Below are positions 3,290-46,005 of a DNA stretch of 64,000 nucleotides, one piece after another; the stretch's first letter is position 1; each line of letters starts with the position of its first letter. Position numbers and translations under genes: made by a program. The stretch is from contig CAVUWV010000017.1 of NCBI GenBank assembly GCA_963745075.1, positions 96,001 through 160,000 on the forward strand, written 5' to 3'. Origin of the DNA: Candidatus Hydrogenedentota bacterium. Lineage in GTDB: Bacteria > Hydrogenedentota > Hydrogenedentia > Hydrogenedentales > SLHB01. The notes beneath the pieces were generated by a model. It made no database searches. It was given only the letters and a program-made list of their open reading frames with translations, and was not told the DNA's origin.

Positions 3290-4297
3290 TTATTTGGTTT
3301 CGCGGCCCGCGTATTGCCGTTTGTAGTATTCGAGGAACTCACCGGTCTTGATTTTCCGCCACCACCACTCGTTGTCCTGGTACCACTTCACCGTCAACGC
3401 GATGCCCTCGTCCCAGTTCATAACCGGCTTCCAGCCAAGTGCCTTAAGTTTCGAGGAATCGATCGAATACCGACGGTCGTGGCCGGGCCGGTCTGTGATA
3501 GGTTGAATCAACGACTCGTCCTTGCCGACGCACTCCAGTATTTTCCGGGTTAATACGATGTTTTCCCGTTCGTTTTCCCCCGCGATATTATACACCTCGC
3601 CGGGGGCACCGTGCCGCAACGCGTGGTCCACGCCGCGGCAATGGTCTTCGACGAACAACCAGTCGCGCACGTTCTTGCCGTCGCCATAAAGCGGCAAAGG
3701 TTCGCTATCGATGGCGTTCGTGACAAACAAGGGCAGCACCTTTTCCGGGTATTGATACGGGCCGTAGGTATTCGAACCCCGCGTAATCGTCACGGGAACG
3801 CCAAAGGTGTGGAAATAGGAAAGGCCCAGCAGTTCACCGCCCGCCTTGCTCGCCGAGTACGGATTGCGCGGCCCCACCGGGTCGGTTTCCTTGAACGATC
3901 CTTTTTCGATGCTGCCGTAGACTTCATCCGTCGAGACGAGCAGCACGCGCTTCGTGCCTTGCGCCTTGGCGGCTTCGAGGATGTTGTGGACTCCCCGCAC
4001 GTTGGTCGCGATGAAGTCGGACGCTTCAATGATGCTGCGGTCCACGTGACTGTCCGCCGCGAAATTTACGACCGCATCGCACCCTTCCATGGCTTGGGCC
4101 ATGGTTTCGGCGTCCGCGATGTCCGCCTGCACGAACGTGTGCCGCGACGCATCGAGGTCTCTGAGATTGTCGAGATTGCCGGCGTACGTGAGCTTATCCA
4201 CGTTCACCACATGCACCTCGGGATAGGTCTTCAAGGTGTGGCGCACGAAATTAGATCCGATGAATCCCGCGCCTCCGGTGACGACAATTCGTTTCAT
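3290..4297 (-). CDS. rfbB: dTDP-glucose 4,6-dehydratase
   Basis: VTGGAGFIGSNF, DKLTYAGN, SHVDRSI, STDEVYG, PYSASKA, DRPGHDRRY. Confidence 0.95.
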   Translation of the reverse strand: MKRIVVTGGAGFIGSNFVRHTLKTYPEVHVVNVDKLTYAGNLDNLRDLDASRHTFVQADIADAETMAQAMEGCDAVVNFAADSHVDRSIIEASDFIATNVRGVHNILEAAKAQGTKRVLLVSTDEVYGSIEKGSFKETDPVGPRNPYSASKAGGELLGLSYFHTFGVPVTITRGSNTYGPYQYPEKVLPLFVTNAIDSEPLPLYGDGKNVRDWLFVEDHCRGVDHALRHGAPGEVYNIAGENERENIVLTRKILECVGKDESLIQPITDRPGHDRRYSIDSSKLKALGWKPVMNWDEGIALTVKWYQDNEWWWRKIKTGEFLEYYKRQYAGRETK

Positions 4298-5142
4298 TCA
4301 CGAGTCTCCCGTTTCTGCATGTAGCGCTGCAGCGCGTCGGTCCAATGCGGCATAGTAAAACCGCAGGCCGCCACGAGTCGCGCATTCGACAATACGGAGT
4401 AGGCCGGTCGCGGCGCTTTCGAGGGATACTCCGTAGCCGCGCACGGCTCCACCGGTGTCGAGACGCCGGCGGTTTTCAAGATTGCCTGCGCAAATTCAAA
4501 ACGTGAACAAGTCCCCTCGTTCACGGCGTGGTACGTTCCGTACGCCGCGGTACGCGCCAGCGCGCGTGTCGCTTCGGCCAGATCCCGCGTGTAGGTCGGC
4601 GAGCCCACTTCGTCACTCACCACGCGGAGCGACGGCCGCTTCGACGCGGCCGCGAGGATTTTCTCCACAAAATTGTTTCCACCGATTCCGTACAACCACG
4701 CGGTCCGCACGATGAAGTGCCGTTCCCACGATCCCCGCGTCGCCGCTTCACCCGCCGCCTTGCTCTCCGCATAAACGCCGTGCGGCGAAATGGGATCGCC
4801 GGCTTCGTACGGTGTCGTCTTTGTGCCGTCGAACACAAAGTCCGTGCTGAAGTACACCACCGGCACTTCCCGCGCGGCTGCCATCTGCGCCACGTTGCGC
4901 GCGCCGCGTTCGTTCACGGCATACGCCGCGTCACGGTCCGACTCGGCGCGTTCCACATCCGTGTACGCAGCCGCATTGATGATGATTTCCGGTCGCGCGC
5001 GCTCGACTGCCGCGCGCAGCGCCGTTGCATCGGTGATATCGAGTTCAGCGTAGGTCAGACCCGTCGTCGGTCCGGCTGTGGCGAATACGTCGATGAGCAC
5101 GTGACCTAACTGACCATCCGCGCCGACTATCAGTGTTTGCAT
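4294..5142 (-). CDS. rfbD: dTDP-4-dehydrorhamnose reductase
   Basis: GADGQLG, INAAAYTDV, STDFVFDG, YAESK, GSPTY, RPAYSVL; 4-nt overlap with rfbB. Confidence 0.93.
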   Translation of the reverse strand: MQTLIVGADGQLGHVLIDVFATAGPTTGLTYAELDITDATALRAAVERARPEIIINAAAYTDVERAESDRDAAYAVNERGARNVAQMAAAREVPVVYFSTDFVFDGTKTTPYEAGDPISPHGVYAESKAAGEAATRGSWERHFIVRTAWLYGIGGNNFVEKILAAASKRPSLRVVSDEVGSPTYTRDLAEATRALARTAAYGTYHAVNEGTCSRFEFAQAILKTAGVSTPVEPCAATEYPSKAPRPAYSVLSNARLVAACGFTMPHWTDALQRYMQKRETRE

Positions 5143-5164
5143 GAGATCCCCTTGAGCGGTCGGG

Positions 5165-5173
5165 ATTGTAGCA
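5165..5173 (-). promoter_or_regulatory. Extended -10 promoter element for rfbD-rfbB
   Basis: Minus strand TG-C-TACAAT about 22 nt upstream of the rfbD ATG; AAGGGG SD follows. Confidence 0.4.
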
Positions 5174-5246
5174 AGACGGGGAGTGCAAAAGAAATCTCCC
5201 GCATCGCAGTTTTCGCACCGGCAATCCGGCTATCTTGTGCGGAAGC

Positions 5247-5273
5247 TCAAGTTTTTGAGTGTTTCGCCGATAC
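5247..5273 (+). promoter_or_regulatory. sigma28 (FliA/SigD)-type promoter, unit 1
   Basis: TCAA(GTTT)-N15-GCCGATAC versus consensus TAAA-N15-GCCGATAA. Confidence 0.7.
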
Positions 5274-5279
5274 ATGTAG

Positions 5280-5560
5280 TACAACGCCGAGGCACGGAGG
5301 CCGAGGCAGAATCAGACACGGATGTCGCAAGAGTTGAATGTGGGGTTGGGTAGGCCAATCCTCCCAACCGTCAGCAAAACGGCGTGATGCATGTCCCTGC
5401 ATCCCGTCTTTGCATAGAATGCCCGGTGACCATCCCTACACCGGGTAATCGCAGTGTAGGTGGGTGCTCATCCCTGCACCATACCTGAAAAAGTGACCAT
5501 AGTTTTACCCTCCATGAGTGGCGCCACAATCCCATAGTTGTGGCGTCCTTCCTTTTTTCT
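5280..5560 (+). ncRNA. Candidate sigma28-dependent sRNA 1 (two ACGGA hairpins plus five C-rich-loop hairpins)
   Basis: Bounded by a sigma28 promoter and a terminator; no credible ORF. GGC-ACGGAG-GCC at 5291-5302 and GACA-CGGA-TGTC at 5315-5326, then hairpins enclosing TAGGCCAATCCT, TGTCCC, ACCATCCCTA, TCATCCCT and TCCCATAG. Confidence 0.6.
5520..5560 (+). terminator. Intrinsic terminator of candidate sRNA 1
   Basis: CGCCACAA-TCCCATAG-TTGTGGCG stem-loop followed by TCCTTCCTTTTTTCT. Confidence 0.65.
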
Positions 5561-5600
5561 CTTGCCGCGCCAGTCCGAAATCTTTCATCAAATTTGCCGC

Positions 5601-5627
5601 TAAAGTTCCCCGCCCTTCCGCCGATAA
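5601..5627 (+). promoter_or_regulatory. sigma28 (FliA/SigD)-type promoter, unit 2
   Basis: TAAA-gttccccgcccttcc (15 nt)-GCCGATAA, an exact consensus match. Confidence 0.8.
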
Positions 5628-5633
5628 AAGTAC

Positions 5634-5825
5634 TGCACGGACCGAGACACGGAGGTCGAGGTCACCTGACACGGATGTCACCCATTTTAATAGGTCTGAG
5701 GACGACGCCGGCGAAAGCCGCACGGGGCGACCAATCCCATCGCCCGCTACGTGACGCGTCCGAAAGGTCTAACCCTCTGTAGAGTGCGCTATGGCACTGC
5801 GTGGCATAGCGCATTTCTCCTTTTT
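5634..5825 (+). ncRNA. Candidate sigma28-dependent sRNA 2 (5' module paralogous to sRNA 1)
   Basis: ACGGA at 5637, GAC-ACGGAG-GTC 5646-5657, TGAC-ACGGAT-GTCA 5667-5680; multibranch domain with a CGGC-GAAA-GCCG GNRA hairpin and GGGCGA-CCAATCCCA-TCGCCC; terminator at the 3' end. Confidence 0.6.
5785..5825 (+). terminator. Intrinsic terminator of candidate sRNA 2
   Basis: TGCGCTATG...CATAGCGCA 9-bp stem followed by TTTCTCCTTTTT. Confidence 0.65.
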
Positions 5826-5852
5826 CCCCGCATCATGCCAGTCTTCCTTCGC

Positions 5853-5876
5853 TAATCGTAATCGTAATCGTAATTG
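5853..5876. repeat. Hexamer tandem repeat (TAATCG)x3 + TAATTG
   Basis: Directly visible just downstream of the truA stop. Confidence 0.8.
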
Positions 5877-5883
5877 GCCCGCC

Positions 5884-6651
5884 TCAATACTCCACCGCCA
5901 TCAAGGTCAGCCCCCGTGCAGGCGCTGTAAAGCCGTGATACGGTCCTGGCGATCCCAACAACGCGTCGATACGCGACTCCGGCAGGTGGCCGCGTGCCAC
6001 CTCCACCAAGGTCCCCGTGATGTTACGGACCATTTTGTAGAGGAACCCGTTCCCGTGGAATTCCAACCGCCACAGGTTTTCCACGTCCGGGGTTTGAATC
6101 ATGCCGCCTTTCGCCAATCGCAGCGAATACAGGGTGCGGACGGTGGAATGCTTCGGGCTGGCATTGCTTCCCTCGAAACTCGCGAAATCATGTTCACCCT
6201 CGAACTTCGTGCACAGATTACCCAACCGCTCGAGATTCAAATCGCGGGGGGCGTGCCACGCAAAGTCCGCACAAAAAGGATCCGGTTCCCGATTCAGATC
6301 GAGCGCGTACCAGTATCGCTTGGCACGGGCGGATTTACGGGCGTGAAATCCCTCCGGCGCCGGCGTAATCGATTCGAAACGAATCTCCGGACCCAGCATT
6401 TGCGACAGGGACCGCCGCAGCCGCTTCGGATCCACGTGATCCGGCAGGGTGAACGAACACACTTGCCCCAAGGCGTGGACTCCGGCATCGGTGCGGCTCG
6501 CGCCGTGGACGGGCACCGGTTCGCCCACAATCCGCTCGACGGCGGCCAGGATCTCGCCCTGCACCGTCCGTTCCGTGGGCTGAACCTGCCATCCGGCAAA
6601 ATTGGAGCCCACGTAGCGCACAACGGCTTTGTAGTTCCGAGTCTCCGGCAT
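5884..6651 (-). CDS. truA: tRNA pseudouridine(38-40) synthase
   Basis: YVGSNFAGWQVQ, TVQGE, GASRTDAGVHALGQV, GEHDFASF, GFLYKMVRNI, TAPARGLTL. Confidence 0.95.
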   Translation of the reverse strand: MPETRNYKAVVRYVGSNFAGWQVQPTERTVQGEILAAVERIVGEPVPVHGASRTDAGVHALGQVCSFTLPDHVDPKRLRRSLSQMLGPEIRFESITPAPEGFHARKSARAKRYWYALDLNREPDPFCADFAWHAPRDLNLERLGNLCTKFEGEHDFASFEGSNASPKHSTVRTLYSLRLAKGGMIQTPDVENLWRLEFHGNGFLYKMVRNITGTLVEVARGHLPESRIDALLGSPGPYHGFTAPARGLTLMAVEY

Positions 6652-7336: not shown

Positions 7337-8592
7337 ATGATTAGTCTTTTGGTGGCGGCGTGTTTGAGCGCCCCCAATGTCGTGATGCTTTCTGTTGATA
7401 CCCTGCGGGCCGATCATCTCGGTTGCTATGGGTACGAGTACGATACCACCCCTCATCTCGACCAGTTCGCCCGGGACGCAATGGTTTTCGACAACTGCGT
7501 TACGGAAGTCCCCCTGAACGTCGCCGTCCTTCGGCGCCATGATGACCTCGCATTATCCGCGTATGAACGGCGCCGCGCGCAACGGATTGCCCCTTCCCGA
7601 GTCCGTGCCGACCCTGGCCGAACAGTTTCAAGGCGGCCGGGTATTATACGTTTTGCGTGCAAAGCAATTGGACCCTCAAGGCGCCACTCTGCGGACTCGC
7701 GCGAGGGTTCGACACGTACGAGGACAGTTTCCACAAGAAGCGCTGGGGTTTCCTGAAGTCCGAGCGTTACGCCGATGAAGTCGCGAAGATCGCGGTGGAG
7801 TTCCTGACGAAACGCGATCCGGACAAACCATTTTTCGCCTGGATCCATTTCTCCGATCCGCACGCCCCGTACAAGTTTCACAAAAAGTTCAATCCCGGCG
7901 ACCGCGACCTGCGAAAGCTGAGCGATGATGAAGACACCCGCGCCCGGTACGATTCGGAAGTGGCATACGCGGACCACAACATCCAGAAGGTGCTCGACGC
8001 CATTCCCGAAAACACCTACGTGCTTTTCGTGGCGGACCATGGGGAAAGCCTACACGAACACGATTACCTCGGTCACGGGCGCAGAATCTATCAGACGGGG
8101 CTTCACATCCCTCTGATGGTGCGCGGTCCCGGGATCGCGCCGGGGCGTACGGTGGCGCCCGCGCGGGGTGTCGATATCGCACCGACGATTCTGGGTCTGG
8201 CCGGTCTGTCGCGGCCAGACGGCATGCTTGGTCTGGATTTGTTGAACGATCCCGTTCCGGACGATCGCGTTCGTGTGGTCGAGACCTACGGCGGAGCGGT
8301 TCCCAAGATTCCCGGCGCGAAGGCGCTGATGGCGTCGCGCCCGCCCATGCGCCAGGGCGTGATCTCGGGGAACTGGAAGCTCATCATCGGCGGCCCGGAA
8401 ACCGAGTTGTTCAATCTCGCCGATGATCCCGAGGAATTGAACAATGTCGCGGGGCAGGCGGAGGACCGTCAAAAGAACCTCGCCGCCTTTATCTCAACCT
8501 GGGATACCGCGACCTCGAAAGAGGACACGGAAGCCGCGGACTTGAGCAACGAGGATATCGAAGCCTTAAAGAGTCTGGGCTACGTGGAGTGA
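7337..8592 (+). CDS. Sulfatase-like hydrolase/transferase (alkaline phosphatase superfamily) with two +1 frameshifts
   Basis: PNVVMLSVDTLRADHLGCYGY; removing one A (~7517) and one G (~7632) gives VPLTSPSFGAMMTS...QFQAAGYYTFCVQSN. Also FSDPHAPY, ADHGESL, LFNLADDPEE, LKSLGY. Confidence 0.8.
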
Positions 8593-9747
8593 GTCGCCGG
8601 TAAGCATCGGCAAGGGATCTATGGGAACGTCGTTTTTTCGCACCTCGTAATGGAGGTGCGGTCCCGTCGAACGCCCGGTCGATCCCACGTTCGCAATTGG
8701 CGTGTCCGCCGTGACCGTTTGGCCCGCTTTCACCAGAATCTTTGAGGCGTGACCGTAGACGGTTTCCAGCCCGTTGGCATGTTTGACCACCACGACCTTA
8801 CCGTATCCGGGTTTCCACCCGCTGAACGCCACCTTCCCCGGCATGGATGGATACACGTTCGTGCCCGATTTTGCGGCAATGTCGATACCCTCGTGAAACT
8901 CCGGCCTTCCCGAAAAAGGATCATTGCGCATGCCGTACTTCGAGGTCAGCCGGGCAGGGCCACCCAGAACCTGCGCCCATGGGCTCTCGGAGACTCCCTC
9001 AAACTCGTCCATGGACCCCGGTTCGAGGATGGACTGAATCAGCCCGGTAATGTCCGTCGACACGGGGGACGCGGCCGAAGCAACGTCACCGCGTCCGCCA
9101 ACCGATCCGGTTGAACGAACCGGGTGGGGAGTCAGCGGCGGAACCCGCGTGGACGAAACGCGAGGCAATCCGATGGCGCTATGGTTCTTGCCATTGCCCG
9201 ACGGTGCCGGCATGGAGAACCGCGGCTTGCGCTCGGGCATCGCGAATTGCTGCGTCTTTTGAGGCATGGCGGGCATGGTCCGCGGCGCCGTGACCATGGC
9301 CGCGTTGATCGTGCGAGACGGTGGGCCTGCGGTCACGGCCGGGGGAACGATCGCTTCGACCTTTGCGTGGATTTTGACTGCATTCGCGAGCGCTTTGGCG
9401 CCTTCTCCGAATGCGTTTAGCGCGGACAGGTCCAGCTTTTGTCCCACCGACAGAAAGTCAGGGTCCCGCAATCCATTTGATTTCGCGACCGTCATGACGG
9501 CGCGATGAACGGCCGCTTGGGTCGGATTCTTCCCCTGGCCGGTCAGAGAACGCTTGCAGATCTGCCAGAGATTTTGGCCCCGTTCCACGATATGAATCTG
9601 CCGTGCTGCTGCGCCGCTCGATCCGGGTTGTCCAATGCCAATCCGGTCGAGAAACTTGGGAAACCCTCCGCCGTTCGGACTGAGCGGAGGAATGTGGCTC
9701 CCAAGTGCTTCCGGAAGTTGATCGGTCGATATCGGCATAATCCGCAT
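8566..9747 (-). CDS. LysM + M23 family metallopeptidase
   Basis: HIVERGQNLWQI...NGLRDPDFLSVGQKL (LysM); HEGIDIA, YGH, GRSTGPHLHYEVR (M23). 27-bp convergent overlap with the sulfatase. Confidence 0.88.
   Translation of the reverse strand: MRIMPISTDQLPEALGSHIPPLSPNGGGFPKFLDRIGIGQPGSSGAAARQIHIVERGQNLWQICKRSLTGQGKNPTQAAVHRAVMTVAKSNGLRDPDFLSVGQKLDLSALNAFGEGAKALANAVKIHAKVEAIVPPAVTAGPPSRTINAAMVTAPRTMPAMPQKTQQFAMPERKPRFSMPAPSGNGKNHSAIGLPRVSSTRVPPLTPHPVRSTGSVGGRGDVASAASPVSTDITGLIQSILEPGSMDEFEGVSESPWAQVLGGPARLTSKYGMRNDPFSGRPEFHEGIDIAAKSGTNVYPSMPGKVAFSGWKPGYGKVVVVKHANGLETVYGHASKILVKAGQTVTADTPIANVGSTGRSTGPHLHYEVRKNDVPIDPLPMLTGDSLHVAQTL

Positions 9748-45913: not shown

Positions 45914-46005
<92 letters not shown>

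Follow-up and report, generated by a model that had tools for sequence, protein, structure and literature searches.

Two plus-strand small RNAs (sRNAs) are situated between rfbD and truA, both minus-strand genes, in an intergenic region (positions 5143-5883) of a 64,000-nucleotide stretch of a Candidatus Hydrogenedentota bacterium (contig CAVUWV010000017.1, positions 96,001 to 160,000), referred to here as the window. RNA1 (~5280-5555) and RNA2 (~5634-5823) each follow a sigma28 (FliA)-type promoter, from which their transcription is predicted, and together they contain six hairpins (H1 to H6) whose C-rich loops were described in an initial annotation. The sequence features suggest that they are probably two paralogous, sigma28-transcribed, non-coding RNAs that repress the clustered flagellin genes in trans and also bind CsrA. 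Both RNAs have the same layout: two CsrA-type GGA hairpins, UCCC-loop hairpins (three in RNA1, in addition to H1, and one in RNA2), a pyrimidine-rich single strand complementary to a ribosome-binding site, and a terminator. For this locus and its relatives, structure, conservation, complementarity, co-variation and co-occurrence were computed.

The strongest element of the locus, which the initial annotation overlooked, is a 26-nucleotide (nt) strand antisense to a flagellin ribosome-binding site and start codon. The DNA search itself matched 5497-5522 at 25/26 positions to G000:C8:8373-8398 in the same genome, where the strand is the reverse complement of the third flagellin gene (fla3) across the Shine-Dalgarno (SD) sequence, spacer and AUG. 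The initial annotation had recommended a target search with flagellin foremost; the outcome was clear for RNA1, whereas RNA2 yielded no clear target. When 5318 called genes were ranked by duplex energy with the RNA1 3' strand, fla3 came first (z -7.6) and fla2 fourth, while the stand-alone fla1 was 878th and the fourth flagellin 1668th. Structure-aware co-folding, which covered the top 500 genes per RNA, placed fla3 first and fla2 second, and a separate, crude scan that ignores internal structure agreed on fla3. The loops also have counterparts in these leaders: 9-nt matches link H2, H3 and H4 to AGGGA sites of fla2 or fla3, and H5 has a 10-nt match at the fla3 start (each with a control P of 0.007-0.025). 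Flagellin leaders contain a hairpin with an ANGGA loop and a second such site in the SD sequence; in 117 leaders, the -70..-28 zone holds 130 of these sites, 57 of them reading AGGGA. Pairing of the loops with target mRNA sites, one of three options raised at the outset, is thus supported, with the AGGGA(U/C) CsrA-type sites of flagellin leaders as the targets. At G000:C8:9413-9975 (minus strand; within L004), the fla2 gene is preceded by a leader of ~560 nt with 14 ANGGA motifs, several of them in predicted hairpin loops, and its sigma28 promoter is at C8:10007; this leader may itself be a CsrA sponge.

The complementarity follows each genome's own flagellins across genera. Among all 47 RNAs from 30 genomes, own flagellins rank first for 11 and within the top three for 22, many of the failures being genomes with an unassembled flagellin cluster; with no genome excluded, 18 of 21 genera favour their own flagellins (Wilcoxon p=0.005). 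In a narrower set of 23 genomes, each with two or more cluster-type flagellins (38 RNAs, 16 genera; a fragmentary genome was taken out and one gene given a new label by hand), own flagellins rank first for 8/38 RNAs (expected 1.8) and within the top three for 22/38 (expected 5.3). Permutation of genus labels for the anti-SD strand never reached the observed residual of -4.8 kcal/mol (0/20,000; p<1e-4; 16 genera). For instance, the RNA of genome G031 can form an unbroken run of 20 Watson-Crick pairs with the flagellin site of its own genome, against at most 14 with that of any other genus. The loops co-vary with their own -70..-27 leader zone (36/43 loops, permutation p=0.002) and with the wider leader (25/43, p=0.005). 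No co-variation was detected between the 43 loops and the start zone (p=0.92), and the idea that the loops are directed at the start codon (every flagellin starts with AUG GG) was rejected on this result, with the exception of the terminator loop H5 in this genome. Pairing is better with the clustered flagellins than with the stand-alone gene in 33/35 comparisons when the best gene is taken and in 31/35 when means are used, and paralog-selective control is therefore the likely output.

This tracking bears on whether the RNAs are minimal CsrA sponges of the RsmY/CsrB kind that act through their 5' GGA hairpins alone, the 3' complementarity being a relic that an inverted flagellin-leader copy left behind. 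The two GGA hairpins, with two conserved ANGGAN loops on stems, are indeed the most invariant part of the family, and some paralogs have 4-5 ANGGA sites; those with five (L024:2173-2437, L054:2232-2446) come nearer to a sponge design. A relic, however, would not track each genome's own leader across 16 genera, and most members have two sites against the 22 GGA motifs of CsrB (in the portion of PMC7652899 available), so that a pure sponge appears very improbable. Each window RNA has 2-3 ANGGA motifs, and homologs have mostly 2 and at most 5. The GGA motifs are spaced 24 nt apart in RNA1 and 22 nt apart in RNA2, and one CsrA dimer is described as bridging two sites 10-63 nt apart (PMC7652899, in part). 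GGA hairpin 2 together with its 5' neighbour base matches the SELEX consensus for CsrA, as given in that source, at 10 of 12 positions. Three short sigma28 RNAs (L024:2523-2657, L047:2724-2852 and L054:2517-2638) have a UCCC loop and an anti-SD strand without the GGA module, which suggests that CsrA sites are dispensable for the action of the antisense half.

By sequence, the RNAs are members of no known sRNA family and make up a previously undescribed one: neither RNA matches Rfam at gathering score or at E<=10, and no description of such RNAs in this lineage was found in a literature search of top listings that took in few subscription papers and no motif-screen supplements. A DNA search gave matches, many of them partial, in 40 of 60 relatives. 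The 40 loci yielded 49 promoter-to-terminator candidates, both window RNAs included; left out were 10 promoter hits without a called terminator (some of them true members), one non-member and one overlapping duplicate. A covariance model trained on 29 RNAs matches 101/135 genomes of the phylum, every match falling within one order, and none in the two genomes outside it. When 185,579 species genomes were scanned for the pattern, 71 loci emerged, all of which match the covariance model; by depositor title, 50 belong to Ca. Hydrogenedentota/Hydrogenedentes and 17 to uncultured Nitrospirales/Nitrospiraceae, and viral contigs gave no pattern match. Flagellin genes are no more than ~2 kb away from the RNAs in some genomes (G110:C2:218923-223653, G109:C178:9530-14213, L037), a hint as to the site at which the family originated.

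The shared structure is supported by two-sided changes. In an unfitted MAFFT alignment 89% of cells are paired, with two-sided changes in 12/25 pairs, and in a structure-fitted alignment the values are 94% and 20/25; none of 500 shuffles reaches the pairing or covariation of either alignment, in controls that ignore relatedness. The stem of the UCC loop has two-sided changes in 5/5 pairs of the fitted alignment and 4/5 of the unfitted one, in agreement with the initial proposal of a conserved loop on a variable stem. At least one internal UCC loop is predicted in 60 of 75 non-redundant members (training sequences included), and these loops read UCCC in 62 of 73 cases, UCCU in 4 and UCCG in 2; CCC also occurs inside the terminator loop in 35/75 members. 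The same counts bear on a second option of the initial annotation, that the loops kiss the RNA's own ACGGAU sites as a conformational switch for CsrA access. A 4-bp AUCC-GGAU pairing is possible, but the 5' sites are mostly ACGGA (100/162) or AAGGA (44/162) and predict UCCG or UCCU loops, contrary to the UCCC observed, and the switch was discarded as extremely improbable.

All six hairpins have the perfect stems and loops originally reported, at the positions given in Table 1, and are far beyond chance. At least six UCC-loop hairpins occur in none of 1000 dinucleotide shuffles of the 411-nt region (mean 0.41, maximum 5), nor do at least five UCCC-loop hairpins (0/1000; mean 0.15, maximum 3). 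Across the genome, 11,054 tiles of 411 nt were scored (one tile in three, on both strands): three of them carry three such hairpins, one of these overlapping the locus, and none carries more. The description of near-identical loops on unrelated stems holds for the UCCC family loops (62/73) and fails for H1. The H5 hairpin is the loop of the RNA1 intrinsic terminator. The fold of RNA1 has a z of -4.8, and that of RNA2 is much weaker (z -1.4).

Assignment to the plus strand, as initially favoured, was upheld by sigma28 promoters and U-tailed terminators that are conserved in homologs. The promoters at 5247 and 5601 were assigned by what we take to be the sigma28 consensus; a strict scan for the motif found 12 sites genome-wide, two flagellin-gene promoters among them, and a sigma70 scan found no promoter. 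Under the third option of the initial annotation, the minus strand would provide the functional RNA, in the form of a CsrB-like sponge whose loops read AGGGAU. Such an RNA might come from truA read-through. Both flanking genes do lie on that strand and its loops do read AGGGAUG, but the conserved promoters and U-tails are on the other one, the stems contain 117 G-U against 16 A-C pairs (a count from an alignment fitted on the plus strand and so biased toward it), the minus-strand fold is unremarkable (z -1.4), and truA lies inside just 13/40 homolog loci; the chance that it is right is minute. Two internal peptide candidates were also rejected. An open reading frame (ORF) from the ATG inside GGA hairpin 2 encodes 21, 31, 21, 10, 10, 10 or 33 amino acids, or lacks the ATG, across eight long-form RNAs, and a minus-strand ORF of 10 codons behind a mirrored SD sequence is missing in 3/8. 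Such inconstant lengths and lost start codons in the homologs are the reason for regarding the RNAs as non-coding.

Table 1. Coordinates of the two candidate sRNAs, their elements and the flanking genes (positions in the window).
Feature	Position	Strand	Remarks
Sigma28 (FliA)-type promoter of RNA1, TCAA-N15-GCCGATAC	5247..5273	+	Motif recurs upstream of homologs and of flagellin genes in this genome; fliA present
RNA1, long form, ~276 nt	5280..5555	+	Ends inferred from promoter and terminator
5' GGA hairpin 1 of RNA1, loop ACGGAG, CsrA-type site	5286..5307	+	Helix 1 paired in 97-99%
5' GGA hairpin 2 of RNA1, GACACGGAUGUC, CsrA-type site	5315..5326	+	Predicted fold, fitted family alignment
H1	5344..5369	+	Stem conserved, loop not conserved
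H2, loop UGUCCC	5386..5403	+	9-nt complement to AGGGAC site at -376 of fla2 leader (G000:C8, ATG at 9413)
H3, loop ACCAUCCCUA	5422..5445	+	9-nt complement to AGGGAUG hairpin loop at -40 of fla3 (ATG at C8:8376)
H4, loop UCAUCCCU	5463..5480	+	9-nt complement to AGGGAUG site at -55 of fla2
Anti-translation-initiation strand of RNA1	5497..5522	+	25/26 complementary to fla3 -22..+4 (SD, spacer, AUG); between H4 and H5
Intrinsic terminator of RNA1	5520..5560	+	Loop H5 (5523-5544), 10-nt complement to fla3 start (-4..+6)
Sigma28-type promoter of RNA2, TAAA-N15-GCCGATAA	5601..5627	+	
RNA2, short family-typical form, ~190 nt	5634..5823	+	
Two 5' GGA hairpins of RNA2, loops ACGGAG and ACGGAU	5641..5680	+	
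H6, loop CCAAUCCCA, family-conserved	5725..5745	+	Only 6-nt complement to this genome's flagellin leaders
Anti-SD-like strand of RNA2	5767..5786	+	Weak match to own flagellins (fla3 rank 63/5318); strong in other-genus orthologs
Intrinsic terminator of RNA2	5785..5825	+	
rfbD/rmlD	4294..5142	-	Flanking gene, context
truA	5884..6651	-	Flanking gene, context; inside 13/40 fetched homolog loci

Elsewhere in the window, a short tandem hexamer repeat with copies at several further sites in the genome and in relatives lies just beyond the truA end (5853-5879), an M23 peptidase with a weak LysM match is encoded at 8566-9747 (minus strand), and a tRNA (45914-46001) is the sole Rfam hit.

The RNAs occur together with flagellin. 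Among 135 genomes (hand-tabulated), 98 have both, 3 the RNA only, 6 flagellin only and 28 neither; the 3 RNA-only genomes are 60-93% complete. Of the 23 genomes of one family, 21 have neither, and the 2 that bear flagellin have the RNA as well. Genus g29 (G126, G127, G128 and G033; 78-91% complete) has kept csrA, and has no flagellin (E<=1e-25) and no family RNA. Fisher's test was not relied on here because related genomes are not independent. FliW was found in 28/31 genomes, and this genome has csrA, fliW and fliA, with fliW adjoining csrA. Hfq was detected in none of 61 genomes with PF17209, a probe whose control was positive in 5/14; PF01423 (LSM) was dropped as a probe, its control being positive in archaea only. 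The loss of the family along with flagellin argues against RsaE-type broad regulators, whose UCCC loops would seed on many G-rich ribosome-binding sites with flagellin as one among many, as does the co-variation of loop flanks with the own flagellin leader zone. An unpaired UCCC motif does stop initiation on several Staphylococcus aureus mRNAs (PMC2790875, in part), and RNA2, H1 and H6 are without a flagellin-specific match in this genome; broad regulation, most plausible for RNA2, for which no non-flagellin gene stands out, is unlikely overall.

In the proposed mechanism, FliA would transcribe both RNAs along with the late flagellar genes, as the promoter motifs suggest. The 5' module of two GGA hairpins ~22-24 nt apart would, judging by motif, structure and spacing, bind one CsrA dimer, and the bound CsrA may stabilize the RNA, be titrated by it or assist its pairing, in a lineage without detectable Hfq. 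The UCCC loops, given their computed complementarity and co-variation, could make the initial contacts, loop to loop, with the AGGGA CsrA-type sites in the leaders of flagellin genes. The 3' strand, on its computed complementarity, rank and co-variation, would then pair over the SD sequence, spacer and AUG of the clustered flagellins, and a duplex across SD and AUG would be expected to block 30S loading. The stand-alone flagellin gene would be largely spared, and on balance the RNAs would determine which of the flagellin paralogs are translated. The same pairing could also have the opposite outcome if the loops strip CsrA from the leader and the 5' hairpins capture it, so that flagellin mRNA is activated or stabilized. 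Loops that are complementary to and co-vary with CsrA-type sites would fit this, and E. coli MotR and UhpU raise flagellin levels via fliC pairing; however, the E. coli activators pair within the coding region (both points from the available part of PMC10578931), and here the strongest duplex spans SD, spacer and AUG and should therefore block initiation, which leaves activation with a small probability. Repression of the clustered genes may also be joined to a second action, one that we would sooner doubt than accept: 5' capture of CsrA would de-repress the unpaired flagellin gene, while the loops would replace CsrA on the clustered-gene leaders and silence them. If true, a single sigma28 RNA would switch filament composition, with CsrA instead of Hfq as its partner, in a FliW-bearing lineage.

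Several observations weigh against the proposed mechanism. The RNA2 strand ranks fla3 only 63rd by duplex energy and 187th of 500 by co-folding, with fla2 at rank 614, and no gene stands out as a target of RNA2 among the 5318 by duplex or the top 500 by co-folding; same-genus copies of RNA2 rank 7-15 of 19. Misfits near the last rank include the RNA2 of G021 (20/23) and one RNA of G014 (21/23). H1 and H6 reach 6 nt in flagellin leaders, which is chance level (P 0.69 and 0.57). The H1 loop is AUCCU, not UCCC, and is wholly replaced in 5/5 same-genus homologs that retain the stem; H1 thus falls outside the conserved loop pattern, and its role is probably structural. The loops lie 5' of the anti-SD strand and their sites 5' of the SD sequence, so that both contacts cannot form one continuous helix and must be separate helices. 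The energies come from RNAduplex and cofold on script-made gene calls, not from IntaRNA, and related genomes, even when compared by genus, do not count as independent data. From the computed features we infer that sigma28 drives transcription, that CsrA binds, that pairing is seeded between loops, and that a duplex over SD and AUG represses. Transcription and its strand are predicted from motifs, and RNA-library contigs give a weak hint of expression. Of 11 sequencing runs, which contained just 4-10% of the words, four were aligned, and contigs of relatives cover 5315-5497 (X2, 183 nt), 5314-5562 (X4, 294 nt), and 5461-5557 and 5650-5819 (X3, 184 and 192 nt); an X1 contig of 1868 nt spans rfbD into RNA1 and may be of DNA origin, and strand is not readable from such contigs.

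Among the closest known systems are the E. coli sigma28-dependent sRNAs FliX, MotR, UhpU and FlgO, which are FliA-driven, and those that pair with flagellin mRNA alter flagellin levels (PMC10578931, in part). The FliA-type promoter motif is present at both window RNAs and their homologs, and pairing with flagellar mRNA is computed for RNA1 and not for RNA2 in this genome. The E. coli sRNAs are, in the available text of that source, derived from untranslated regions, studied with Hfq and paired inside the fliC coding region, whereas RNA1 and RNA2 are free-standing, have CsrA-type hairpins, show complementarity to SD/AUG as well as to GGGA sites in the leader, and come from a setting in which Hfq was not detected; Rfam revealed no relation in sequence. 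Campylobacter jejuni FlmR/CJnc170 is likewise FliA-dependent and paralogous, has flagellar targets and comes from a CsrA-FliW organism; it represses flagellar genes, with flaB among its suggested targets, but it measures 47 nt, and no CsrA-binding module or multiple UCCC hairpins are described for it in the accessible part of PMC11187230. E. coli McaS and GadY and Bacillus subtilis SR1 are base-pairing RNAs that bind CsrA through at least two GGA motifs (PMC7652899 and PMC6546359, in part), binding that is here predicted. With SR1, CsrA promotes target pairing (PMC6546359, in part), and both the RNA and the flagellin leader carry ANGGA sites in the present case. Unlike these three, the window RNAs have as predicted targets the CsrA-type sites and ribosome-binding site of flagellin leaders, putative sigma28 control and a fixed modular layout throughout an order.

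Like the S. aureus RsaE/RNAIII-type RNAs (PMC2790875, in part), the present ones would display unpaired UCCC on hairpins (predicted in 62/73 loops), act independently of Hfq and repress translation initiation. In contrast to that type, the loops match AGGGA leader sites rather than a GGAGG SD, and co-vary with the -70..-27 zone rather than the start zone; a separate strand covers the SD sequence, a 5' CsrA module is added, and Rfam gave no match to RsaE/RNAIII up to E 10. GGA hexaloop hairpins of the CsrA-binding type are shared with CsrB, CsrC, RsmY and RsmZ, and the two conserved ANGGAN loops are SELEX-like, with CsrA binding predicted. The many GGA loops of that class are reduced here to mostly two sites, and the RNAs further differ in that their promoter is of the sigma28 and not the BarA-UvrY type, an antisense domain is added, and FliW co-occurs with them; no Rfam sponge model of the CsrB/Rsm kind matches at gathering score or E<=10.

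The RNA family is new, and suited to curation, while the kinds of sRNA that it resembles are already known. According to the available part of a 2020 review, joint action of FliW and an sRNA on CsrA remains to be determined in any species (PMC7652899). The family places CsrA-type sRNAs in genomes with fliW and csrA and without detectable Hfq, which makes the FliW/sRNA question testable with a few short RNAs and two small proteins. It also provides, by co-variation alone, a pairing of sRNA and target of unusual clarity, in a lineage that is represented here by genome assemblies only, and these RNAs suggest how bacteria with multiple flagellins choose among their flagellin genes.
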